In this document: positions 2,567-35,114 of the stretch, piece after piece
How positions within the stretch are numbered: the stretch's first letter is position 1
Layout of the letters: every line of letters starts with the position of its first letter
Source: Rickettsiales bacterium
GTDB lineage: Bacteria; Pseudomonadota; Alphaproteobacteria; Rickettsiales; UBA1997
Length of the DNA stretch: 35,770 nt
NCBI GenBank assembly: GCA_947496905.1
Contig: CANMEW010000001.1
Location: 1-35,770 of the forward strand
Direction: 5' to 3'
Program-made: the position numbers and the translations under genes
Notes under the pieces: generated by a model
What the model was told of the DNA's origin: nothing
Databases searched by the model: none
What the model saw: only the letters and a program-made list of their open reading frames with translations

Positions 2567-2706
2567 GGCGCCTCTAAAAATTAGATTTTTTCGAGAAATT
2601 TTTAGGCATCCAAATTTTTGAGCAGGAAAGCGTACTACTTGTACGTGCTCGCGAAAAAATTTGGTAACGAAGAAATTACCGAAAAAAGCAATTTTTAGAG
2701 GTGCCC
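2567..2706 (+). mobile_element. family A MITE-like palindromic element (subtype with the ggcatccaaattttt core)
   Basis: Termini are ggcgcctctaaaaatt ... aatttttagaggtgccc. It is near-identical to the reverse-oriented copy at 34958-35098 and has a central gtac...gtac palindrome. ORF 2661-2945 is an artefact of this repeat. Confidence 0.75.
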
Positions 2707-2804
2707 GGAAGGCAAAGAGTCGCTTTTTGCCTCATCTACTCGCAAGTTTATTGGTTTTAAAAAAAGAGAGAGTTGCAATCGCTTCGCTCTTGTCGCGACT
2801 ATTT

Positions 2805-2903
2805 TTCTCTCAGAAAATTAAACCTATTGCGAATGCACGGATTTATTCCGTGCGTAGCAATTCGATCAGCACCAAATTTGAACGAAGTTCGAATTTGATT
2901 AAA
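2805..2903 (+). repeat. family C double-hairpin element (RPE-like), intergenic copy
   Basis: The core 2829-2903 matches the reverse complement of 24063-24137 inside pyrF at 66 of 75 positions (manual alignment). It contains the hairpins gcacgga-tttat-tccgtgc and aaatttgaac-gaa-gttcgaattt. Confidence 0.7.
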
Positions 2904-2938
2904 GCGCGGGCAAGTTACTTCAATCAATCAACAAGTCA

Positions 2939-3436
2939 ATGTTAGGGCAGATGCAGCAAGGAGACAGGCCCGATTACCTTTACCGTAGCGGAGTAGGAAT
3001 TACTCTCATCAATCAGAAAAAAGAAATTTTTGTTGGCAAAAGAATCGACAATAATTCTGACGCTTGGCAAATGCCGCAAGGTGGCATTGATGCTGGAGAA
3101 AGTGAGGATGAGGCGATGTTTCGTGAACTCAAAGAGGAGACAGGAATTCCTAATTTCGGCGTTAAAGTTTTGCAGAAAAGTCAGAAATATCACTACTACA
3201 ATTTGCCTTACAATTTACAGAAAAAATTTTGGGGTGGAAAATATTTAGGACAGAAACAGCGGTGGTATTTGGCGGAATTTATTGGCGATGAAAATCTGAT
3301 CGACATCCATTCTGAAGACCCAGAATTTTCGCATTGGAAATGGATTTCTCGCGACACAATTCTCAGATCCATCGTGGCTTTTAAGCGTGATCTTTACGAA
3401 GAAATTCTAACAGAATTTTCCAGATTTTTTAAATAA
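2939..3436 (+). CDS. rppH: RNA pyrophosphohydrolase (Nudix hydrolase)
   Basis: Nudix box GGIDAGESEDEAMFRELKEETGI. The size and the WQMPQGG context are typical of RppH/NudH. Confidence 0.85.
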   Translation: MLGQMQQGDRPDYLYRSGVGITLINQKKEIFVGKRIDNNSDAWQMPQGGIDAGESEDEAMFRELKEETGIPNFGVKVLQKSQKYHYYNLPYNLQKKFWGGKYLGQKQRWYLAEFIGDENLIDIHSEDPEFSHWKWISRDTILRSIVAFKRDLYEEILTEFSRFFK

Positions 3437-7460: not shown

Positions 7461-8183
7461 ATGCCCGACAAACCTGATCTTAAGTTTAAGCGCATTCTTT
7501 TCAAAGTTTCCGGTGAAGCGATGATGGGGGAGAAAGCCTTTGGTCATGACTCAGAGGCAATTAAAAAAATCTGCAACCAGGTAATTTCGGCTTACAAATT
7601 GGGCTGCGAAATTTGCATCGTTGTCGGCGGTGGAAATATTTTTCGCGGCGTTTCTGAAGCGGCAAAATCCATTGAAAGAGTCACTGCAGACTACATGGGA
7701 ATGCTTGCAACCTGCATCAATGGTTTGGCGCTGCAAAGTGCTCTTGAAAAAAATGGCGTCGACACTCGCATGCTTTCTGCAATCACCATGAATAGTGTTT
7801 GCGAGCCTTACATCAAGCGTCGCGCCGCACGCCACTTAGAAAAAGGTCGCGTCATTATTTTCTCTGCAGGTACCGGTAATCCATTTTTTACTACCGACAC
7901 CGCGGCAGTGCTGCGCGCTGTTGAGATGGGATGTGATGGAATTTTGAAGGGAACCCAAGTTGATGGCGTCTATTCTGCCGATCCTAAAATTGACAAAAAT
8001 GCCATTCGCTACGACGTGGTGAGCTACATCGATGTTCTTAAGCAAGACCTCAAGGTCATGGACCAAACCGCAATTACCCTCGCTAAAAGCAACAAATTGC
8101 CAATCGTGGTTTTCTCAATCAAAGAAGAAAACGCGCTGCAAGACGTGGTGTGCGGCAAGGGTAAATTCACAATCATTAATTAA
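7461..8183 (+). CDS. pyrH: UMP kinase
   Basis: Start chosen at ATG 7461 (MPDKPDLKFKRILFKVSGEA). Motifs VVGGGNIFRG and FSAGTGNPFFTTD are present. The track start at 7374 lies inside the tsf terminator. Confidence 0.92.
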   Translation: MPDKPDLKFKRILFKVSGEAMMGEKAFGHDSEAIKKICNQVISAYKLGCEICIVVGGGNIFRGVSEAAKSIERVTADYMGMLATCINGLALQSALEKNGVDTRMLSAITMNSVCEPYIKRRAARHLEKGRVIIFSAGTGNPFFTTDTAAVLRAVEMGCDGILKGTQVDGVYSADPKIDKNAIRYDVVSYIDVLKQDLKVMDQTAITLAKSNKLPIVVFSIKEENALQDVVCGKGKFTIIN

Positions 8184-8186
8184 TTT

Positions 8187-8738
8187 ATGATCAACGAACT
8201 ACTAGACAAAGCGCATAAAAAAATGGATGACACCATGCACTCATTGAAGAGGGACATGGACAGTATTTCAACCGGCAGAGCATCGCCATTACTACTCGAT
8301 CACGTCAAAGCCGAAGTCTACGGCAACCTCATGGCGCTGTCACAAATTTCTAGCATCTCCGTTCCGGAAGCTACTACTCTGTCTATTCAGGTTTGGGATC
8401 GTGAAAATGTTAAGGCTGTTGAGAAGGCGATCATCAATTCAAATCTTGGATTTAATCCTCTTGTTGATGGCACCACCATTCGCATCATGATTCCAAAACT
8501 AAGCGAAGAGCGCAGGAAGGACCTGGTAAAGCTAGCCAAAAAATATGGCGAAGACAAAAAAATTGCCATTCGCAATATTCGCCGCGACGTTCTCGATGAT
8601 TTCAAAAAAAATGAAAAAGAGCTCGGAAAGGATCAGGCTCACTCTTTCACGGACATCATCCAAAAAATTACCGACGATTTTATTAAAAAAATCGACGAGG
8701 TAGTCGCGGTAAAAGAAAAAGATTTGATGAAAGTCTAA
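8187..8738 (+). CDS. frr: ribosome recycling factor
   Basis: 183 aa. The sequence is typical RRF (...IRIMIPKLSEERRKDLVK...IRNIRRD). Confidence 0.95.
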   Translation: MINELLDKAHKKMDDTMHSLKRDMDSISTGRASPLLLDHVKAEVYGNLMALSQISSISVPEATTLSIQVWDRENVKAVEKAIINSNLGFNPLVDGTTIRIMIPKLSEERRKDLVKLAKKYGEDKKIAIRNIRRDVLDDFKKNEKELGKDQAHSFTDIIQKITDDFIKKIDEVVAVKEKDLMKV

Positions 8739-17968: not shown

Positions 17969-18056
17969 TACCGAATCTGATTGAAGACACCGAACTAATC
18001 TTTGTCAGATTCGGCATGGGGTTCCCCACAACGTGGGGCGCGACTCATGTCGCGTA
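17969..18056 (-). repeat. family B multi-hairpin element
   Basis: Its reverse complement aligns with 32667-32763. Both carry the shared hairpins cgcgac-atga-gtcgcg, ccccac-gtt-gtgggg and ccgaatctga...tcagattcgg. It fills the lipA/phoU spacer. Confidence 0.65.
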
Positions 18057-18772: not shown

Positions 18773-19128
18773 AGAGAGCCTCTAAAAATTAGAATTTTTC
18801 GAGGAGTTTGCAGTGACGGCGGAGCCGGAAAAATGCATCGCATTTTTAACTGACAAATGACGCAAGGCCGTAAGGCCTGAGTAATTTGCGACTTGTCGAT
18901 AAAAAATAAAATTTTCAAGTAAAACGGGAATGAGCGAAGCGAATCCTTAGGCATCCGAATTTTTGAGCAGGAAAGCGTACTACTTGTACGATTCGAGCAC
19001 AGGGATCGAGCTTAAGCTCGATGCCCGTTCTTACTAAAAATAGCTTCGCATTTTTTTAACGCTCGAACCTCGCGAGCAAATTTGTCTGACGACAAAATTA
19101 CCGGAAAAAGCAATTTTTAGAGGCACTC
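18773..19128 (+). mobile_element. family A element carrying two nested insertions
   Basis: Family A left arm (18773-18809), core (18947-18990) and right arm (19070-19128) are interrupted by ~138 bp (18810-18946) and ~79 bp (18991-19069). The second insert contains the perfect palindrome atcgagcttaagctcgat. Confidence 0.7.
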
Positions 19129-20505: not shown

Positions 20506-21478
20506 TTACTTTACTACCAGACCATATTTTTTACCAAGATAACTCATGACAGAGATTCGATCCGAGCTTTTAAGAACTACGTCAAACATGATTACTTCGG
20601 AGATATGCCCTCTGAATGATGAAAGTACACCAGCATTGGTGGCACCTCTACTAATCCAGAATTCTGTTGGTGAGAGCGCGTCAACCGTAAGAGAAGACGT
20701 AAGAGAAGCTCCAGCTTTGCCGTTAACATATTGAGTAATGGTGCTAAGAGTTGAAAAGCCGGAAGTTGTGACGCAGATAATTTGTGGTATTTTATTGGTG
20801 GTAGGGGAGTCGAAGATGAAAGTCGTCTCGTTCAAAACTTTAACTCCTGTTGCGGAGTAATATTTGAAAATACCAAACCCATCCGTCGCAGTAGTAGTAT
20901 CTCCGCCTCCGTTATTTATAATTCCTTCATTACCAATCGAAAAGTCATTGAACACCACAAAAATTGTTGAGGCATTATTCGTTACTGCCGGCACCGCGGC
21001 TATGACGTTTGTGTGTACAGTGGCGGTTGGAGCGGTGGTAGAGTAAAGTGAGGAAAGAATAAGTCTTCTAAAGGCCGTGCTATCAAAAAAACTTAATGTT
21101 GGTAACCCATTGATGCCATTATTTTTGTAGGTTATTCCAGCAGTTGTGTTATTTGCTGTTAGGGTTGCTGCCGTTGCAGTTTGTGCGATTGCAAAAAGTG
21201 GTGTGGTTGTTTGCGGGTTAATGTCGTTCCACACCGTGATTGGAAAATTATCTTCGGTTTCTGCGGATAAAAAACTCTCTTCCAACGATGTCTCTAGCCA
21301 AAGTGAAAGACCTTTAATGCTGTTAACCGGAGAAGATTTAGTCAGAGACCTTGGAAGCTAGCTTCATTTGACCAACCAACCTTCTACCTTGCGTTACGCC
21401 GGCAACTAAAATTCCGATGATTAAAATTACGATTGAGAGCTCGATTAGGGAGAAGGCTTTGTTTGTTTTAGTTTTCAT
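20506..21478 (-). pseudogene. prepilin-type N-terminal domain / LamG-like domain protein, frameshifted paralog of 26063-26965
   Basis: ATG 21478 gives MKTKTNKAFSLIELSIVILIIGILVAGVTQGRRLVGQMKLASKVSD-stop (21338-21340). The shifted frame continues SLTKSSPVNSIKGLSLWLETS... into ORF 20506-21285 and aligns with the intact paralog. Confidence 0.7.
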
Positions 21479-21559: not shown

Positions 21560-22144
21560 CTACTGCCGCACAGAGTTTGTCATGCCTTGATTACCAGCTG
21601 AAGGCTGATTCATTTTTTCACCGCGATTATCTTGCATCATTGACAGGTCAAATCCGGTGATCTTCTTCATCTCAGCGCGATGTCTTTCGATTTCTTTTTT
21701 AGCCAATTCTTTTTGCTGAGGTGACAGCTTCTCCATCATCTCATGATGTCTCTCCATCCTAGCCCTCTCTTCTGGCGAAGCATTTTTCATCTTCTCCATT
21801 CTCTGCTCTTTGCGCTCCTCTTTTTGCCCATTTTTTTCCTGCTTCATTTTCATCATTTTCTCGCGCTCTTCCGGACTCATATTCATCATTTTTTCGTGAT
21901 GCTCCATCATTTTTTTCTTCTCTTCCGGAGATGCATTTTGGTATTTCTCTTTGCGTTCCATCATTTTTTGTTTTTCTTCGGGAGAAGCATTTTTGAACTT
22001 CTCATTCCTCATTTCTTTTTTCTGATTTTTTGCATCAGTAGAAACTGAAGAGGTCGCTCCGGATGCTGGAGTTGTAGTATCTTGGGCATTAGCTGAAAGC
22101 GAACAAATTGTCGCAACGGCAAAGAGAGTTAGAAATTTTTTCAT
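21560..22144 (-). CDS. secreted Met/His/Glu/Lys-rich repeat protein (LTXXQ-like, Spy/CpxP/ZraP-style motifs)
   Basis: ATG 22144 gives the signal peptide MKKFLTLFAVATICSLSANA. Five units follow: NASPEEKQKMME, NASPEEKKKMME, NMSPEEREKMM, NASPEERARME and LSPQQKELAKKE. Confidence 0.55.
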   Translation of the reverse strand: MKKFLTLFAVATICSLSANAQDTTTPASGATSSVSTDAKNQKKEMRNEKFKNASPEEKQKMMERKEKYQNASPEEKKKMMEHHEKMMNMSPEEREKMMKMKQEKNGQKEERKEQRMEKMKNASPEERARMERHHEMMEKLSPQQKELAKKEIERHRAEMKKITGFDLSMMQDNRGEKMNQPSAGNQGMTNSVRQ

Positions 22145-22216
22145 GATTTTTATTTTTGTTTGAGGTTGTGGAGGAGGAAAGGTGGTGCAACGAAGATAAG
22201 AATAACTGAGCAAAAC

Positions 22217-23365: not shown

Positions 23366-23938
23366 ATGAAAAAATTTTTACCGTACTTCCCGCTGCTTTT
23401 TTTGGTAGGGTTGATTGGAATTTCGACTTACAATTTAAACAAAAAACAAAGCGCCGAACAGGAATTGCGGAACTCCGTTGATGATGATAAAAAAAACCTT
23501 CACTTCACTTCAGTAAAAATCGTCTTACCGGAATTTTCTTTACCCGATCTTCACAATGACAAACTAGATCTTTCTAGAAATGACTTTTTGGGGAAATATT
23601 CGATCATAAATTTTTTTGCTTCTTGGTGCACAACTTGCCGTGAAGAGCATGAAATTTTGATGCGCTTAAAAAGGGAGGGAATTGCTGATATGTACGGTGT
23701 AGCTTGGCATGACATCGATGATAACACCATGTCTTACCTTAAGAAAAATGGTGATCCTTTCATAAAAGTTGCAGCAGATAATCGTGGACTCTTTACCAAA
23801 ATAACCGGCATTGAAGCGGTTCCAGAAACTGTAATTGTTGATCCAGAAGGAGTCGTTGTAATGCGCTACCGCGGCAATTTGCAGGAATTCTCAATTGATG
23901 AAATTGCGCAATTCATCAAGAAGCATAAACATCGCTGA
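23366..23938 (+). CDS. ccmG: thiol:disulfide interchange protein (DsbE/CcmG, TlpA-like thioredoxin)
   Basis: ATG 23366 gives an N-terminal TM anchor. The thioredoxin motif FFASWCTTCREEH is present. It converges on pyrF with a 23-nt overlap. Confidence 0.78.
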   Translation: MKKFLPYFPLLFLVGLIGISTYNLNKKQSAEQELRNSVDDDKKNLHFTSVKIVLPEFSLPDLHNDKLDLSRNDFLGKYSIINFFASWCTTCREEHEILMRLKREGIADMYGVAWHDIDDNTMSYLKKNGDPFIKVAADNRGLFTKITGIEAVPETVIVDPEGVVVMRYRGNLQEFSIDEIAQFIKKHKHR

Positions 23939-24728
23939 TTAGATTCACAAATTTTTGAGTAGCTTCTTTTGGATGAGTATCGCGGGTGATTGGTCTACCG
24001 ACCACGAGGTGAGAGGCACCATTGGCAAGTGCAGTTTTGACATCGGTAACACGTTTTTGATCTTCAATCAAATTTGAACTTCGTTCAAATTTGGAGCCAA
24101 TCGAATTGCTGCGCACGGAATCAATCCGCGCATCCGCAATAGATTTATTTTCCTTAAAAAGCTCGGTGTCTTTACTCAGCCTGATTCCAGGCGTTACGAT
24201 GAGAAAATCTTTTCCGCAATTTTCTCTAATCTTCTTTGCCTCAAGAGCCGAGGCAACAACTCCATCAAGTCCAAATTCAAGAGCTAGTTTGGCCCTGCCA
24301 AGCACTAAATTTTCGAGTGTATTTCCCGCCTTAAAACCAACAGCTTCCACCGTTCTGTTAAAAATTTCTTGGTCGTAAGTGGTGAGAACGGTTACACCAA
24401 CAACCTTCATTCTACCCTTTGCCTGCGCCGCTGCTTGAATGATGTCTTCACTGATGGCGTGGATCGTAACCATGTCAACTTGATGCTGCGCCAGATTTTT
24501 AATTGCGCGCGAAACTGTGGTGGGGATGTCGTGAAATTTTAGATCAGCGAAAACTTTTTTGCCTTCATCCTTCAAAAATTTGATGAGGTCGAAGTAACCG
24601 CCGCTCATCATCAGCTCTAGTCCAACTTTGTAAAAAACCGCCTCATCGCCAATTGCCCTAACAAGATTCTTTGCCTCCTCAATAGTTGGAACATCGAGGG
24701 CAATGATTAATTTTTCTTTCGCATTCAT
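23916..24728 (-). CDS. pyrF: orotidine 5'-phosphate decarboxylase carrying an in-frame repeat insertion
   Basis: The motifs LIIALDV, DLKFHDIPTTV, TPGIR and VVGRPI are present. I prefer ATG 24728 over the track GTG 24743, which lies inside the flanking repeat. Confidence 0.9.
   Translation of the reverse strand: MNAKEKLIIALDVPTIEEAKNLVRAIGDEAVFYKVGLELMMSGGYFDLIKFLKDEGKKVFADLKFHDIPTTVSRAIKNLAQHQVDMVTIHAISEDIIQAAAQAKGRMKVVGVTVLTTYDQEIFNRTVEAVGFKAGNTLENLVLGRAKLALEFGLDGVVASALEAKKIRENCGKDFLIVTPGIRLSKDTELFKENKSIADARIDSVRSNSIGSKFERSSNLIEDQKRVTDVKTALANGASHLVVGRPITRDTHPKEATQKFVNLISDVYAS
24063..24158 (-). repeat. family C (RPE-like) element inserted in frame in pyrF
   Basis: 96 nt, 32 codons (FKENKSIADARIDSVRSNSIGSKFERSSNLIE) between the conserved GIR and DQKR motifs. 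It is 88 percent identical over 75 nt to the intergenic copy at 2829-2903. Confidence 0.75.
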
Positions 24729-24737
24729 GGCAATTAA

Positions 24738-24879
24738 GGGCACCTCTAAAAATTAGATTTTTTCGAGGAATTTTTAGGAAGAAAATTTGCGAGCAGGAAA
24801 GCGTACTCTGATGTACGTGCTCGCGAGCAAATTTATCTGACGATAAAATTACCGGAAAAAGCAATTTTTAGAGGCACCC
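24738..24879 (+). mobile_element. family A MITE-like palindromic element (reference copy)
   Basis: gggcacctctaaaaatt ... aatttttagaggcaccc with TTAA on both flanks (24734-24737 and 24880-24883). ORF 24679-24864 is an artefact of it. Confidence 0.8.
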
Positions 24880-25482
24880 TTAAAACTTTTTCTCTTCACC
24901 AGTTAGTAGGCGGATAAGATTTTCTTTGTGCTTGATTGTGATTAGGACGAATAGGAGGCAGCAGAAAATTATTTGGGAATTTGGGGCTTCGAAGTGGGAC
25001 GACAAAATGATCGAGGAAAAAATTGCGATTAGCGAAGAAATTGCAGAGATGCGAAATAGGACAAAGGAAATGATCCAAAAACAAACCATTAAAAATCCGG
25101 TGATTGGATCAAGCGCTGACAATACTGCAACTGCAGTTGCTACGCCTTTCCCACCTTTGAAATTTAGATAAATTGGGTAGATGTGACCAATTACCGCAAC
25201 AGCAGCGACAAAGACCAAAAATAAATGCAAATTGCCAACATCGTAAAAAGCAAATCTTGCCGCAATGATCATCGCCGCGCCTTTCAAGCCATCCAGAATT
25301 AAAGTGACGAAGCCGAGTTTTTTACCAACGACTCTCGCAACATTTGTGGCGCCAATATTTTTTGACCCCAATTCACGAATGTCTTTTTTTGCGAAGACTA
25401 TTGCCAAAATTAAGCCGAATGGAATCGCCGCAATCGCGTAGGTTAGGATGAGAAATAGGATTTGGTAAAGAAGGGTGATCAT
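24880..25482 (-). CDS. plsY: glycerol-3-phosphate acyltransferase PlsY
   Basis: 200 aa polytopic membrane protein with GSKNIGATNV and FKGGKGVAT. Confidence 0.93.
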   Translation of the reverse strand: MITLLYQILFLILTYAIAAIPFGLILAIVFAKKDIRELGSKNIGATNVARVVGKKLGFVTLILDGLKGAAMIIAARFAFYDVGNLHLFLVFVAAVAVIGHIYPIYLNFKGGKGVATAVAVLSALDPITGFLMVCFWIISFVLFRISAISSLIAIFSSIILSSHFEAPNSQIIFCCLLFVLITIKHKENLIRLLTGEEKKF

Positions 25483-26062: not shown

Positions 26063-26965
26063 CTATTGGATGGCAATTCCATATTTCTTTCCTAGGTAGC
26101 CATTAACAGCTTTGATCTCTGACTTTTTTAAAGCTCGATCAAAAACAATTACTTCTGAAACTAACATCTCGTTTGACTGAATTACCATGCTCATTGGATG
26201 AGCATGGATCACAAGTCTATCGGCTCCTAAATTTAAGTTTGCTGCGCCACCAGATGATGCCACTCCAGCAGCTGGAACTGAGGTATTACTGTTATTGTAG
26301 ATCCAAACATTATTGGTTAAAGAATTATCAATCACCATGACAGTCGCGTAATTACTATTACCGATTAGTCCGCAAGGGTTGGTATAGCTGTCGTTAAAAT
26401 ATCCAGCAAAACCACACTGAGTATTATTCGTAGCAAACATTGCTTGTGCATTATTTAGTGTAGTATTGGTACCCTGTCCCATGAGTACCTGCGTACCAGA
26501 CATGGTGGTAGCTCTCCACACAATAACCATTGTGTAATCATCGTCGCCAGCGCCAATTGGCGTTGTTGTTGTTTGTAGAAAATCTGATGTACTCTCAAAT
26601 TTTATTGAGGGTAGTCCATTTATTCCGTTTGCGATGTAGACTGGTCGCGCCGCATCTGTTGATTGTGTAAGATTAATTTTATTGAGCGATTGCGGGTTAG
26701 AATCGGCCCAAGAAGAAATTTTATCTAAATCACTCGGATTGTTACCATTGGTAGCGCTTGTAACCGCAGTTTCCGAAGTGGTTTCTAGCCACAAAGTCAG
26801 ATTTGCCATCGATGCTACATCTGAACTTTTTGTAAGAGACCTGCCAGAGGAAAGTTTCATTTCTCCAACCAACCTGCTGCCTTGAGTTACTCCAGCAACT
26901 AAAATTCCAATTATTAAAATTACGATCGATAGCTCAATAAGTGAGAATGCTTTGTTTGTTTTCAT
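26063..26965 (-). CDS. prepilin-type N-terminal cleavage/methylation domain protein with C-terminal LamG-like (concanavalin A-like) domain
   Basis: MKTNKA|FSLIELSIVILIIGILVAG is a class III signal with Glu at +5 and Ala at -1. The C-terminal SEVIVFDRALKKSEIKAVNGYL resembles the terminal strand motif of LamG_3 domains. Confidence 0.75.
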   Translation of the reverse strand: MKTNKAFSLIELSIVILIIGILVAGVTQGSRLVGEMKLSSGRSLTKSSDVASMANLTLWLETTSETAVTSATNGNNPSDLDKISSWADSNPQSLNKINLTQSTDAARPVYIANGINGLPSIKFESTSDFLQTTTTPIGAGDDDYTMVIVWRATTMSGTQVLMGQGTNTTLNNAQAMFATNNTQCGFAGYFNDSYTNPCGLIGNSNYATVMVIDNSLTNNVWIYNNSNTSVPAAGVASSGGAANLNLGADRLVIHAHPMSMVIQSNEMLVSEVIVFDRALKKSEIKAVNGYLGKKYGIAIQ

Positions 26966-26995: not shown

Positions 26996-27486
26996 GCGGG
27001 ACTTCCGGTGGTTTTTTTCTGTTGCCAGGAAAAAACCTAAACCCCGACAAAGTCACTTATGCTAAGCAGCTAAAGCCACTGGAGCAAATTCGAAATTGTC
27101 ATTAGCAAAGTTATCGTTTGCGTTTACTTTTTTTGAACGGATGCGATGAATTCATCCGAAGATGCATTCACGGCCGGCAGTTTCTCAACCGAGTAAAGTC
27201 AATCCCTTTAGCGCATGTCGAAAGCTATTCACCCCCATGTTAGGACTTTTTACAAAATTCGCTTCTGACAATAAGTGGATGGTGAATTGGCGCGCAGAGT
27301 CGGGGTGTATTTGACATACACGTAGACTCGAGCACCGAAACAACCGCGCAATTATTGTCAGAAGTTAGAATTTTGTAAAAAGTCCAATGGTGGAGGTGCT
27401 GGGTACCGCCCCCAGGTCCATGACGGTTATTGCGAAGAGAGTTTATCACCATGTCCTTCCGCCCTTGCGGGCGAAGGCGGCGCGCA
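26996..27486 (-). ncRNA. ssrA: two-piece (circularly permuted) tmRNA gene; outer boundaries approximate
   Basis: The acceptor piece ends ...CUGGG-GGCGGUA-CCCAG-CACCUCC-ACCA at 27388. The coding piece starts GGGGGUGAAUAGCUUUCGAC at 27236, and its first 7 nt pair with CACCUCC, including a G3:U wobble. A 151-nt spacer (27237-27387) forms a ~32-bp stem. The tag ORF ends in ALAA. Confidence 0.85.
27062..27121 (-). other. tmRNA tag reading frame ANDNFANDNFEFAPVALAA plus stop
   Basis: AAAAAAAGUAAAC precedes the resume codon GCA. The frame reads GCA AAC GAT AAC TTT GCT AAT GAC AAT TTC GAA TTT GCT CCA GTG GCT TTA GCT GCT TAG. Confidence 0.8.
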
Positions 27487-27573
27487 ACTTAGGTACGAAA
27501 ACAATTTTAACAAGTTATTGTTCCCAAGTTTTTTGTTTTTACTTTTTTACTCCCCAAAAAAATTTAGAAAAAA

Positions 27574-29175
27574 ATGTCCAAAACAATCCCTTCCTCCTGC
27601 GAATCAAATCCCACAAATCGAAAAAAAGTCATCATTCTTGGATCGGGTCCGAACCGCATTGGACAAGGCATCGAGTTTGACTACACTTGCGTTCACGCCG
27701 CATTCGCTTTTAAAGAAAATGACGTGGAAGCAATCATGGTGAATTGCAATCCAGAAACAGTTTCAACTGACTACGACACTTCTGATCGCCTTTATTTCGA
27801 GCCACTCACCGCTGAAGACACAATCGAGCTCATCAAAAAAGAAATGACCAATGGCGAATTGCTCGGCGTCAATGTGCAGTTCGGAGGTCAAACCCCACTT
27901 AGTCTCGCCAAATTTTTGCAAGACGAGGGTGTGCCAATCATCGGCACCTCACCAGACATGATCGACCTCGCTGAAGATCGCGATCGCTTCAAAAAATTAC
28001 TGCAAAAACTCGACCTAAACCAGCCACAAAATTACATCGCCTATTCCGCAAAACAGGTTCTTGAACAAGTTAATGAGGTCGGATTTCCGGTTGTTGTTCG
28101 ACCTTCCTACGTGCTTGGTGGGCGCGGCATGGCAATCGTTTACAATGAATCCTATTTGATGAAATATCTCGTTGAATATGCAGATGTTTTTGAAACCGGA
28201 CCATTGCTGCTCGATAAATTTTTAACCGATGCAATTGAGGTGGATGTGGACGCGCTGTGCGATGGAGAAGAAGTGTTCGTTGCTGGCATCATGCAACACA
28301 TTGAAGAAGCCGGCATCCATTCTGGAGATTCTGCCTGTTCAATTCCGCCTTATTCTCTTTCTCAAAAAATGATTGATGAGGTGAAGGTAGCTACGAAAAA
28401 ACTGGCGCTAGCCTTGAATGTGAAGGGCTTGATGAATGTTCAATATGCCATTCAAGATGAAAGGCTTTTTGTTTTAGAGGTGAATCCAAGGGCATCTCGT
28501 ACCGTGCCATTCGTGGCTAAAGCAACTGGCATCGCTGTGGCAAAAATCGCCTCGCTAATCATGATTGGGAAAAAACTTTCCGAGTTCAAATTGCAGGAAA
28601 AAAAGCTGAATTATTTTGCCGTCAAAGAAGTGGTTTTCCCATTCGCCCGCTTCAGCAATACTGACACAATTTTGGGACCAGAAATGAAATCGACTGGAGA
28701 AGTGATGGGGATCGACAAAACCTTCGCCCTAGCCTTCGCCAAAGCTCAAGTTGCAGCTGGAGTAAAACTCACCACCGATGGCTTAGTTTTTCTTTCCGTC
28801 AAAGATTCTGACAAAAAATATCTGCCAGAAATTTCCAGAAAATTAATTGAGATCGGATTTAAACTTGTTGCCACTCGCGGCACCGCAAAATTCCTCGCCG
28901 AAAATGACATCGCAGTTACAATCGTGAATAAAATTACCGAGGACAAACCTCACGTTGTTGACATGATCGATCGCAAGGAAATTTCCCTCGTCATCAACAC
29001 CACTGAGGGCGAGCAAGCCACGAAGGACAGCTTTTCAATTCGTCGCACTTCTTTGATGAGAGGCGTGAGCTACACCACCACAATCTCCGGAGCCAAAGCC
29101 TTGGTTGATGCCATCGAGGCCTACAAAAATAACGGCTGCAAATTTGAAGTCCGCGCTCTGCAAGATTTGGGATAA
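27574..29175 (+). CDS. carB: carbamoyl-phosphate synthase large subunit, C-terminal half only
   Basis: 533 aa. It starts [36 protein letters not shown], which corresponds to the start of the second ATP-grasp repeat of CarB. It continues through the MGS-like allosteric domain. No N-terminal half lies upstream. Confidence 0.9.
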
Positions 29176-29317
29176 AGGAACCTCTGAAAAACCATCTTTT
29201 CCGGAAATTTTTTCGTTACCAAATTTTTTCGCGAGCACGTACATCAAGGTACGCTTTCCTGCTCAAAAATTTGTTGCCTAAAAATTTCTCGAAAAATCTA
29301 GGTTTTTCAGAGGCTCC
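29176..29317 (-). mobile_element. family A MITE-like palindromic element (ctctgaaaa terminus variant)
   Basis: aggaacctctgaaaaacc ... tttttcagaggctcc. It is flanked by TAA 29173-29175 (the carB stop) and TAA 29318-29320. Confidence 0.8.
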
Positions 29318-29341
29318 TAAAATTTTCTTAGACCCAGATCC

Positions 29342-30733: not shown

Positions 30734-31045
30734 GATTTGAAGATTTTATTTGGTTTAGGATTTATTTTTAAACCCAGATCCGTCATTGGAAATTTTAGGA
30801 GAGTTTAGTTCTGGCTACAAAAGCTGAACCCGCGCCTAGGGCTGCTCTAAGACCACTCGCTTAGAGCCGCATGCGCTCAAGGCAGTTTTTTAAAAAATTA
30901 CTAATTCCATTTTTTGCAAATCAAACTCTGTAACGCCCTGAATTTAGGGCATCGAGCAAAAAGTCCAATTTTCTACGCGCCGTAGAAAATTCAAAAAACG
31001 CGCCAAAATTATGCAGCAAAAAACACCAAAATAATTCAGGGCTAA

Positions 31046-31192
31046 GGGCGCCTCTGAAAATTAGATTTTTTCGAGAAATTTTGAGGAAAAAAATTGCGCC
31101 GAGCGCAGAAAGCTTACTCTGATGTACGTGCCGTGCTGCGCAAATTTATCTGACGATAAAATTACCGAAAAAAGCAATTTTTAGAGACACCC
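31046..31192 (+). mobile_element. family A MITE-like palindromic element
   Basis: gggcgcctctgaaaatt ... aatttttagagacaccc. The flanks are cTAA (31042-31045) and TTAA (31193-31196). TTA at 31193-31195 is the queH stop codon on the minus strand. Confidence 0.8.
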
Positions 31193-31828
31193 TTAAGAGT
31201 AAAATTCTTCGCAGATTTTGATCTCGTCTCGACCATTTTTTACGCGCCGATTGTTGCTGTCTCTCAGACTAAAAATGCAACCGCAATATTCCTGTTTGTA
31301 GAATTCTTCGCGCTTGGCGATTTCGTACATTCTTGCGGCACCGCCAGACTTGCGCCAATTGTAGGTCCAATAGGTGATGTCATCGTAATTTTTTGCAGCA
31401 CGAATTCCGCATTCATTAATTTGATCCATATTTTTCCAACGCGAAATGCCGAGTGACGAAGTGATGATTTTAAAACCATTTTCAGCGGCGTAGAGTGCCG
31501 TGCGCTCAAAGCGCATGTCGAAACATTTAGTACAGCGCAATCCGCGCTCCGGCTCCAACTCCAAACCTTTGGCGCGCGCGAACCAATTTTGAACATCGTA
31601 ATCAGCATCGACGAAGGGAATTTCTAACTTTTCAGCAAAGCGAATATTTTCTTCTTTGCGAATTTCATATTCTTTTTTGGGATGGATATTTGGATTGTAG
31701 AAAAAAATCGTGACGTCAATTCCGGACTTTTTCATGCGCTCCATTAAGTCTCCTGCGCAAGGCGCACAGCAGCTATGCATGAGAACGCGATTGTCGGTGG
31801 CGTTGGATGGGAGTTGTAATTCCTGCAT
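31193..31828 (-). CDS. queH: epoxyqueuosine reductase QueH (DUF208)
   Basis: Start chosen at ATG 31828 (MQELQ...). The motifs HSCCAPC and CxxC...YCGC are typical of QueH. Confidence 0.82.
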
Positions 31829-31853: not shown

Positions 31854-32722
31854 ATGCCCGAATTGCCAGAGGTAGAGACGATCCGCAAAGGCTTGAAAAG
31901 TTTGAGTGGAAAGAAAATCGAGAGAATTTTTCGCTCAGAAAAAAATTACGAACTGCTTCAAACCTTGATTTACAAGGCTTAGACGGTGCAGAGATTTTGA
32001 AAATCACTAGAAGAGCTCGTTACTTAATTTTTCAATTCAGCAACGAAAAAAGTCTAATCATTCACTTGGGAATGAGCGGAAAACTCACGCTGAGCAAAAC
32101 CTTCAATCACCTAAAGCACGACCATTTTGCCTGCAAATTTAACGATGCTTCTTGGTTAATTTTTAACGATCCGCGACGTTTTGGATTCATTGACTTGGTC
32201 GAAACTAAAAATTTAGAAAATCATCAAATGCTGGAGAATCTCGGTCCCGAGCCGCTTTCGAAAGATTTTAATTTTGCTTACCTTCGACAAAAACTGCGTG
32301 GCAAAAAAATGAACATCAAGACCAGCATGATGGACAATAAAATTGTTGTTGGGGTCGGAAATATTTACATCAACGAGTCGTTGTTCGACTCAAAAATTTT
32401 ACCACTACGCGAAGCATCAAGCTTGGAAGATTTTGAAATTAAAGCGCTCATCACCTCAATCAAAAAAATCATAAAAAAAGCAATCGCCTTGGGAGGGTCA
32501 TCAATCTCAGATTACGTTAATGCCAAAGGAGATTCGGGGAATTTCCAAAACTGGTTTAAAGTCTACGGGCGCGCGGGGCAAAAATGTTTGCATTGTAAAA
32601 GTTCGATCGAAAGACTCATCCGGAGCGGCCGCTCGAGCTTCTTCTGCCCAACCTGTCCAAATTCTTTACGCCGCACGAGCGGCGCCCCACGTTGTGTGGA
32701 ACCCCATACCGAATCTGATTAA
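31854..32722 (+). pseudogene. mutM: formamidopyrimidine-DNA glycosylase with a frameshift in an A7 run
   Basis: [14 protein letters not shown]... (31854-31982) stops after 42 aa. The next frame reads [33 protein letters not shown]...HLGMSGKL and runs to the zinc finger CLHC...CPTC. One extra A in 31939-31945 would restore a single ORF. Confidence 0.85.
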
Positions 32723-34612: not shown

Positions 34613-34957
34613 ATGGACAATCTTCAATTATTCCTACTAGTTCTTCAGATAATCATTGCCCTTGCTCTAATAATTTTAGTTCTGTTACAAAAATCAGACG
34701 GTGACATTTTGAGCGGCATTGGCGGCGGTTCAGGAGGCTTAAATTCTGCAATGTCTGGCAAGGCTGCGATGAATGCTTTAAGCAAAACCACAATGATTTT
34801 AAGCGGCCTTTTCATGCTTAACTGCCTAGTTCTCGCTTCAATTTCGAATGCCTCCAATAAAGCGATTAAAAAGGATTTAGAAAAAATTATCGAGCAACAA
34901 GAAAAAATCGAAGGCGCCACAACTCCAACCACTCCAGCCGTTCCCCCAGTAGAATAA
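34613..34957 (+). CDS. secG: preprotein translocase subunit SecG
   Basis: 114 aa. There are two TM helices separated by the glycine-rich loop LLQKSDGDILSGIGGGSGG. Confidence 0.88.
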   Translation: MDNLQLFLLVLQIIIALALIILVLLQKSDGDILSGIGGGSGGLNSAMSGKAAMNALSKTTMILSGLFMLNCLVLASISNASNKAIKKDLEKIIEQQEKIEGATTPTTPAVPPVE

Positions 34958-35098
34958 GGGTATCTCTAAAAATTGCTTTTTACGGAAATTTTGTCGTTAC
35001 CAAATTTTTTCGCGAGCACGTACAAGTAGTACGCTTTCCTGCTCAAAAATTCGGATGCCTAAAAATTTCTCGAAAAAATCTAATTTTTAGAGATACCC
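34958..35098 (-). mobile_element. family A MITE-like palindromic element
   Basis: gggtatctctaaaaatt ... aatttttagagataccc, with perfectly complementary 9-bp tips. It is flanked by ATAA on both sides (34954-34957, containing the secG stop, and 35099-35102). Confidence 0.8.
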
Positions 35099-35114
35099 AT
35101 AAACCTCTTTCAAC

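Follow-up and report, generated by a model that had tools for sequence, protein, structure and literature searches.

The closest described counterparts of the element analyzed here are the Rickettsia palindromic elements (RPEs) of the RPE-1 to RPE-3 type, as reviewed from Ogata et al. 2000 and 2002 (PMC2229807, PMC10969869, PMC3767692). RPEs are palindromic repeats of 100-150 bp; they carry an open frame, and many conserved genes contain one as an in-frame fusion (PMC2229807, PMC10969869, PMC3767692); the copies located inside genes span 68-192 bp (PMC3767692 Table 1, PMC2229807), and the RPE-bearing Gmk of R. conorii is translated and active, with an altered affinity (PMC2229807, PMC10969869). 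Protein-coding palindromic repeats have also been described in Wolbachia (Ogata, Suhre and Claverie 2005, cited in PMC2229807), and occasional in-frame fusions are formed by ERIC, the 107-bp Correia/NEMIS element, and QMITE1 (PMC2229807, PMC10969869). A further group, the CcrM-associated intergenic repeats (CIRs) of Caulobacter, is also found in Brucella (Chen and Shapiro 2003, as described in PMC2229807). In this work, we analyzed a 96-nt double-hairpin repeat inside pyrF, the gene for orotidine 5'-phosphate decarboxylase (OMPDC), in a 35,770-nt stretch of DNA from a Rickettsiales bacterium (contig CANMEW010000001.1 of assembly GCA_947496905.1), hereafter called the window. The observation that the repeat lies in frame inside pyrF was confirmed, and its reading as an RPE-like in-frame insertion is supported and was strengthened by a third copy, which is also in frame.

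The in-frame insert in pyrF

The pyrF gene spans positions 23916 to 24743 on the minus strand and encodes 275 residues from a GTG at 24743; in public records, the start is an ATG at 24728, giving 270 residues (P0001). The product shows the features of an OMPDC, namely the TIM-barrel fold, the D-x-K-x-x-D motif, the Lys/Asp network, the PGIR motif, and the loop Gln of DQ.R. Pfam PF00215 matches the protein (E 7e-48) in two stretches with the insert between them, and the best match among the OMPDCs of the PDB has an E value of 1e-41. In the alignment to solved OMPDCs, PyrF residues 9-193 correspond to residues 2-185 of 27hh_A and PyrF residues 228-268 to residues 188-228; the break between the two blocks, where 34 PyrF residues stand against two in the crystal structure, coincides with the Pfam break. 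PyrF keeps 54 of the 55 family-invariant residues, including D67, K69, D72, P185-R188, and D228-R231, as well as 85% of the 95%-conserved positions, a value that its sister clade also covers (minimum 82%). The PGIR codons (P185-R188; 24180-24191, minus strand) at the start of the mobile active-site loop and the DQKR codons (D228-R231; 24051-24062, minus strand), which include the conserved loop Gln and lie one residue past the insert, are intact and fall in invariant alignment columns.

We compared the loop lengths in the best 120 of 7,858 PyrF homologues, a set that includes the window protein and 119 others; the homologues have 224-245 residues, and the closest one other than PyrF itself is 58% identical. 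The original prediction had counted 39 residues between TPGIR and DQKR and put characterised enzymes such as E. coli PyrF at fewer than ten. Our recount again gave 39, and the distance from PG[IV]R to DQ.R is seven residues in 113 of the 120 proteins. The other loops that depart from this norm measure 8 (P0004), 11 (P0003), and 17 residues (P0118), so the loop of the window PyrF is more than twice as long as the longest one among the 119. The excess of 32 residues (96 nt) equals the length of the repeat, and the alignment proposed as a check of lineage specificity found the 32-residue segment in none of the 119 nearest homologues. P0118, a PyrF homologue of 240 residues, has its 17-residue loop IDKLSTISNSSDHKLHD at the PGIR-DQKR position; the site thus tolerates smaller natural extensions in other lineages.

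A PyrF with an identical insert is present on five contigs from at least four assemblies, and the element is 100% identical, and hence fixed, across all of them. These contigs come from a 57-kb scaffold of the European Nucleotide Archive (ENA), a second ENA assembly, the NCBI metagenome-assembled genome (MAG) GCA_964202855.1, and a Logan assembly. An assembly artefact was excluded because the five contigs carry the same insert. An intein or intron was ruled out by the size of the insert (96 nt) and the lack of any matching family. The three nearest sister lineages keep the sspB-plsY-pyrF gene order without the insert.

The same scaffold holds pyrimidine genes other than pyrF, namely carA, a carB-like gene, pyrH, and dcd, which indicates that pyrimidine metabolism is in use; from this setting, we infer that the organism still uses PyrF with its insert. 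As a separate observation, the homologue of the carbamoyl-phosphate synthase large subunit (27574-29175, plus strand) has just 533 residues, about half the usual length, and clusters at 90% or more with 534-residue proteins of MAGs labelled 'Rickettsiales bacterium', which suggests a split or half-size carB in the lineage of the host.

Copies of the 96-nt repeat

Three copies of the repeat are known, two on the 57-kb scaffold and one on a 3.1-kb contig. Copy A, at 24066-24161 on the minus strand, is predicted to be translated in frame with pyrF as LFKENKSIADARIDSVRSNSIGSKFERSSNLI, residues L195-I226 of the 275-residue protein. Copy B, at 2805-2900 on the plus strand, lies in the spacer between the divergent thrC and NUDIX (rppH-like) genes, whose identities come from Pfam, and is co-oriented with the downstream NUDIX gene starting at 2939 or 2951; it was recognized by repeat pairing, the nucleotide profile, and the covariance model. 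Copy C occupies positions 1773-1868 of the 3.1-kb contig (L019), inside a 229-residue open reading frame (ORF), P0121.

The two window copies pair over 93 nt (2812-2904 with 24062-24154, 87% complementary) and agree at 81 of 96 positions over their full length, which bears out the claim that 32 codons of pyrF are a copy of the thrC-rppH spacer repeat. The earlier count of 66 of 75 positions for the core (24063-24137 against the reverse complement of 2829-2903) proved exact, and the similarity held under proper alignment, in both the repeat pairing and the profile. Copy C is 88.5% identical to copy A and 85% identical to copy B at the DNA level; overall, the copies differ from each other by 12-16%. 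A nucleotide profile of the copies (nhmmer) gives E values of ~1e-31 to 1e-35 against each, and the covariance model scores them at 123-134 bits. The 19-mers and 20-mers of either hairpin occur in the window only at the sites of copies A and B when up to three mismatches are allowed, against a chance expectation of 0.02-0.05.

Searches with the nhmmer profile and the covariance model found no further copies on the 57-kb scaffold, on contigs L019 and L020, or in 31 kb of the three sister lineages. A scan of genome contigs with the 19-mer CCAAATTTGAACGAAGTTC returned seven matches from unrelated phyla that extend over just 19-22 nt, and a scan of metagenome contigs with ATTCCGTGCGNAGCAATTCGAT returned two matches over just 22-28 nt; both results are at the level of chance, and the host genome is apparently not in either collection. 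In addition, the element has no match in Rfam, at the gathering threshold or at E <= 1, and none in a distant blastn comparison against 72,556 plasmids. No terminator-like or promoter-like signal was seen in or beside copies A and B.

The shared reading frame

An exhaustive HMMER search with a 36-residue peptide against 1.84 billion representative proteins gave a single match, P0121 (E 1e-7, 82% peptide identity). The cluster of PyrF itself was not listed in this search, so inserts in conserved proteins are evidently hidden by the 50% clustering and the single match is a lower bound. Two word-indexed peptide searches with a four-frame concatenate, the first as a profile and the second as a single sequence, found nothing, not even PyrF itself, and are uninformative for this reason.

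P0121 has no Pfam domain, and its cluster contains one more member, P0122. The P0121 contigs come from the same sample set as the pyrF scaffold and are also in NCBI; the neighbouring genes are an ankyrin-repeat gene and ispA, and an ankyrin-repeat neighbourhood is typical of host-associated bacteria. On the copy C contig, the intervals 771-1355 and 1461-2150 were noted for the ORF that hosts copy C (P0121/P0122), which has no known domain and adjoins the ankyrin-repeat protein.

Copy C has the same orientation and reading frame as copy A (LFEENKSIADARIHSVRSNSINTKFERSSNLI compared with LFKENKSIADARIDSVRSNSIGSKFERSSNLI), so that the element is in frame within two ORFs, pyrF and P0121. When all six frames were checked, frame +0 was the only one free of stops in all three copies. 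The original prediction that the insert is a multiple of three, lacks a stop codon, and leaves the flanking motifs intact therefore stands, with 32 codons between intact PGIR and DQKR. The peptide is hydrophilic (grand average of hydropathy -0.4 to -0.6) and rich in Ser, Asn, Arg, and Lys. The coding differences between copies A and C are nearly all non-synonymous, which places the conservation at the nucleotide level and not in the peptide. Copy B, read in the frame of the element, lies in a mechanical 94-codon ORF (2661-2945, plus strand) with a TTG start inside a ~160-nt repeat of another family; gene calling in the second ENA assembly passed over this ORF, which is probably not a gene.

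Hairpin structure and boundaries

The two window copies (fold z = -4.1 and -3.1) each form two hairpins, an imperfect stem of 18 pairs and a perfect stem of 11 pairs. In copy A, hairpin 1 (24099-24145, minus strand) closes on a 5-nt loop that contains GATTC, and hairpin 2 (24069-24093, minus strand) is an AT-rich stem with a GAA loop; both are present in the minimum-free-energy and consensus folds. The counterparts in copy B are hairpin 1 at 2821-2867 (plus strand), with a core at 2826-2861 and two broken basal pairs, and hairpin 2 at 2873-2897 (plus strand), which is likewise present in both folds. As GATTC, the motif GANTC sits in the loop of hairpin 1 in two copies, A and C, with a register that differs between them; copy B lacks it.

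The RNAalifold consensus contains 29 pairs. One of them is compensatory (G-C in copies A and C and A-U in copy B, in hairpin 1), two changes remain compatible with wobble pairing, and copy B has lost two of the basal pairs. In each of the three copies, G-U pairs make the fold of the sense strand 4-7.5 kcal/mol more stable than that of the antisense strand. The G-U pairs were rejected as proof of a sense-strand RNA structure, since the stem substitutions that favour sense over antisense number three against two, which is not significant. For the same reason, we do not regard an RNA function of the sense strand as shown.

The three-way alignment defines a common sequence of 96 nt that runs from CTTTTT to AATTTGATT; the CTTTTT with which copies A and C begin may belong to the target or to the element. 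The insert had been placed at 24063-24158; its size of 96 nt, or 32 codons, was retained, but the third copy shifts the element one codon upstream to 24066-24161. The register is uncertain by about one codon, and 24063-24158 is equally compatible if PyrF is considered on its own. Removal of the element restores the sequence LSKDTE|EDQKR, a canonical loop of seven residues. No terminal inverted repeat is present, as the first 20 nt match the reverse complement of the last 20 nt at 3-6 positions, and no target-site duplication was seen in the flanks GAG|GAA, GAT|ATT, and TTT|AAA.

Location of the insert in the enzyme structure

We built an AlphaFold2 model of PyrF with 120 sequences. Its mean predicted local distance difference test score (pLDDT) is 83.6, and the barrel blocks are mostly above 90. 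Residues 187-223 (270-residue numbering), among which 190-205 form a tentative helix, score less than 50. The model of the insert position called for by the original prediction is, in short, a confident barrel from which the insert departs as a low-confidence excursion. In Foldseek comparisons, the model superposes on the OMPDCs of B. subtilis, E. coli, C. jejuni, and other organisms with template-modelling scores of 0.86-0.91, and on 1dbt with 0.86-0.88, all normalized to the target.

In yeast OMPDC, the phosphodianion gripper loop consists of P202-V220, and Q215, Y217, and R235 hold the enzyme in its closed, active form; single substitutions of these residues cost 2.2-5.6 kcal/mol (PMC12874384). 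From the Pro to the Gln, the bacterial homologues have a spacing of 12 residues and the yeast enzyme one of 13; because these values are nearly equal, we equate the Gln of DQKR with Q215 of the yeast enzyme by position. On this positional basis, the insert would lie in the catalytic phosphodianion gripper loop, one residue before the Asp of DQKR. The site had been described as a variable loop next to the active site. Some length variation does occur there, but by position it is the gripper loop and not a bland surface loop.

Comparison with known palindromic repeats

The element resembles RPEs in many respects. Both are palindromic dispersed repeats of ~100 nt that occur in spacers and also, in frame, in conserved housekeeping genes, and both offer one stop-free frame that encodes a hydrophilic peptide, placed as a surface excursion in an otherwise intact host gene of an alphaproteobacterium. 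The length of 96 nt lies within the range of RPEs inside genes. However, the element lacks the ~12-bp terminal inverted repeat and the 5'-3' end pairing (3-6/20), and it consists of two separate hairpins instead of one long stem-loop. It is known in three copies compared with tens to hundreds for RPEs, its insertion site is a catalytic mobile loop, and its host, which has a guanine-cytosine (GC) content of ~41% and de novo pyrimidine genes, is not Rickettsia. To our knowledge, Rickettsia has no de novo nucleotide synthesis. The scaffold of the element carries pyrF, carA, a carB-like gene, purD, thrC, hisA/F, and thiG, with a window GC content of ~41%. The closest named relatives of the host are MAGs labelled 'Rickettsiales bacterium', and the window, which has an alpha-type two-piece transfer-messenger RNA (tmRNA), is alphaproteobacterial. 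The claim of RPE-like behaviour is upheld by the third, in-frame copy in an unrelated ORF, although the architecture and the host are different; membership in an RPE family, compared by description, is not supported.

The Wolbachia repeats, likened to the element by description, represent the same phenomenon in a different host, a genus of Rickettsiales other than Rickettsia, and so the behaviour is not confined to Rickettsia. CIRs, again by description, share the alphaproteobacterial host and the two stem-loop arms joined by a linker in place of an end-to-end stem. CIRs conserve a GANTC in a terminal loop; in the element, a hairpin loop of copies A and C has such a site, in registers that do not agree, and copy B has none. 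In contrast, CIRs are never intragenic and have stops in all six frames, whereas the element lies in ORFs in two of its three copies and keeps one frame open. ERIC, Correia/NEMIS, and QMITE1 also form in-frame fusions, but they have terminal inverted repeats and TA duplications, neither of which is found in the element.

The absence of terminal inverted repeats and target-site duplications, the two marks of a classical miniature inverted-repeat transposable element, argues against cut-and-paste movement of that kind. REP/RAYT and the miniature elements derived from IS200/IS605 are moved by Y1 (HUH) enzymes and have sub-terminal hairpins and a strand-asymmetric structure, with no terminal inverted repeats and no target duplication. 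Such elements also go with a cognate Y1 transposase and a conserved short target sequence on their 5' side. The likeness of the element to these is one of resemblance; its copies gave no conserved target tetranucleotide, and the 57-kb scaffold contains no transposase gene, Y1 or other. From its architecture, the mobility of the element would be compatible with a hairpin-recognising mechanism.

Origin and consequences of the insertion

We consider it highly probable that pyrF received a dispersed repeat and tolerated it. According to this explanation, a short, non-autonomous repeat of 96 nt, built of two independent hairpins and a short linker, would have spread to at least three sites of the genome. 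Because in-frame insertions into exposed loops leave the host gene unbroken, they would survive, and a repeat with a stop-free frame that enters a solvent-exposed loop may persist in this way. In pyrF, the element would have landed between LSKDTE and EDQKR, at the tip of the mobile loop, which covers the substrate phosphate on closure. The element would then be transcribed and translated together with pyrF, which lengthens the loop from seven to 39 residues and leaves PGIR, DQKR, and the barrel untouched. Most likely, the insert-bearing enzyme remains active, perhaps with an altered substrate affinity as in the RPE-bearing gmk of R. conorii.

Several points weigh against this explanation. With the nearest PyrF only 58% identical, no close relative supplies an empty pyrF site for comparison, and both the direction of transfer and the precise limits of the element are therefore inferred. 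The three known copies are a lower bound on the size of the family, and the genome and metagenome scans gave chance matches alone. The copy C contig appears to belong to the same genome as the pyrF scaffold, judging by the shared samples, the GC content, and the element; the abundant ~160-nt repeat of the scaffold does not occur on this 3.1-kb contig. The evidence for selection on the hairpins is thin, with one compensatory pair and with wobble versus breaking changes that divide 3:2 between the strands. Retention of the segment in the mRNA and the protein is a prediction from DNA. Finally, the element is placed inside a lid whose closure contributes strongly to catalysis, so that function may be lost or impaired.

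This last point leads to the alternative that survives best, namely that the insertion inactivated pyrF, which would now be a young pseudogene whose frame is still open by chance, with pyrimidines obtained by salvage. The position inside the catalytically important gripper loop, the length of the loop, more than twice that of any of the 119 homologues, and the failure of AlphaFold2 to give the insert a confident structure all fit such a loss, as does a host whose ankyrin-repeat and TrbC genes make it look like a relative of the host-associated Rickettsiales, which are prone to losing genes. Nevertheless, the 54 invariant residues are kept without a frameshift or stop, the protein is identical in five contigs, the neighbouring pyrimidine genes are intact, and the sspB-plsY-pyrF order is preserved. 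Moreover, if the 12-16% divergence of the copies post-dates the insertion, a neutral gene of 813 nt should by now have acquired stops or indels. We regard inactivation as unlikely.

It is more doubtful still that selection maintains the element, either as a cis-acting RNA that affects mRNA stability or processing, like ERIC or Correia, or as a peptide co-opted into a regulatory lid. Each of the three copies runs in the sense direction of the gene that encloses it or lies downstream, with the better fold on the sense strand by the 4-7.5 kcal/mol given above; there is also the one compensatory pair, and most of the variation falls in the loop, the linker, and the ends. Yet the strand asymmetry amounts to about one observation because the three copies share ancestry, and the stem substitutions split into three sense and two antisense changes. 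The element has no Rfam family and no terminator-like or promoter-like signal, the sister lineages do without it, and the peptide shows no visible constraint in the nearly all non-synonymous differences between copies A and C. That pyrF was itself the source, with a lineage-specific loop extension arising there and pieces of it copied outward later, is very improbable: the three copies do not reveal the direction of transfer and the loop tolerates some variation in length (8, 11, and 17 residues in P0004, P0003, and P0118), but in three unrelated contexts the common sequence breaks off abruptly at the same 96 nt and includes no flanking pyrF sequence, a self-contained double palindrome is unexpected for a protein loop, and the gap in the orthologues is exactly as long as the repeat.

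A bolder form of the preferred explanation, insertion of a dispersed repeat into a tolerant gene, holds that the element belongs to a class of mobile repeats not described before, coding-competent and defined by two sub-terminal hairpins in place of terminal inverted repeats and target duplications, that a single-strand DNA transposase of the Y1/HUH type moves strand-specifically, and that the host has a working OMPDC with a 39-residue lid. Taken together, these two propositions seem improbable to us.

Other repeats and features of the window

A second repeat family of ~160 nt is much denser in the window than the 96-nt repeat. Its copies lie at 2554-2715, 24730-24887, 29168-29324, 31035-31201, and 34952-35111, with partial copies at 1048-1095 and 18773-19128; nested insertions seem to have split the latter. 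Clear terminal inverted repeats, GGGCRCCTCTAAAAATT ... AATTTTTAGAGGYGCCC, mark the family, whose copies all lie between genes and which does not occur in the 31 kb of sister contigs. One copy fills the spacer between plsY and pyrF, two genes that abut in the sister lineages. In the thrC-NUDIX spacer, ENA scaffold_255 (L014, ~8083-8332) contains an extra 250 nt that neither the window (near 2716) nor the second ENA assembly (L015) has, so that the window and scaffold_255 are not the same sequence; this block consists of a copy of the ~160-nt family and a GGTATGGGGTTCCCCACAACGTGGGGCGCG-type repeat. Its presence and absence between assemblies indicate that small repeats are mobile in the population. 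A third short repeat of 52 nt, at 18005-18056 and 32667-32718 (87% complementary), is a GC-rich palindrome, GGGGTTCCCCACAACGTGGGGCGCG, and also occurs in the 250-nt block.

The tmRNA gene (27007-27517, minus strand), of the alpha-type two-piece form, spans 511 nt compared with a model of 355 positions. An unaligned insertion of ~120 nt (~27243-27366) lies in its intervening loop, bracketed by a 31-nt inverted repeat (27230-27260 and 27368-27398), and it matches neither the 96-nt nor the ~160-nt family. In Rickettsia, RPEs invade tmRNA. Two further repeats were noted. One is a 110-nt direct repeat at 21360-21469 and 26853-26962 (85% identity); its second copy extends over the 5' end of a gene for a pilin-like (N_methyl) protein (26063-26965), and the repeat thus probably reflects a paralogous N-terminus. 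The ORF at 21560-22213 (minus strand) contains, at 21768-22031, internal direct repeats of 33, 54, and 57 nt and encodes a repetitive protein without a Pfam domain.

Implications

In-frame palindromes were reported first from Rickettsia, then from Wolbachia, and as occasional fusions from a few other bacteria; the present case adds an uncultured, Rickettsiales-like lineage with a fuller metabolism. That an element of different architecture behaves in the same way suggests that small repeats with an open frame generally come to behave like this and that Rickettsia is no special case. For annotation, the lesson is that inserts of this kind split Pfam matches and are hidden by protein clustering. 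By position, the gripper loop of an OMPDC has been quadrupled in length, in an enzyme whose loop closure is credited with much of the rate enhancement. If the element does belong to a Y1-moved class and the enzyme works, this PyrF would show, as a natural experiment, how far the best-studied closing loop in enzymology can be lengthened.

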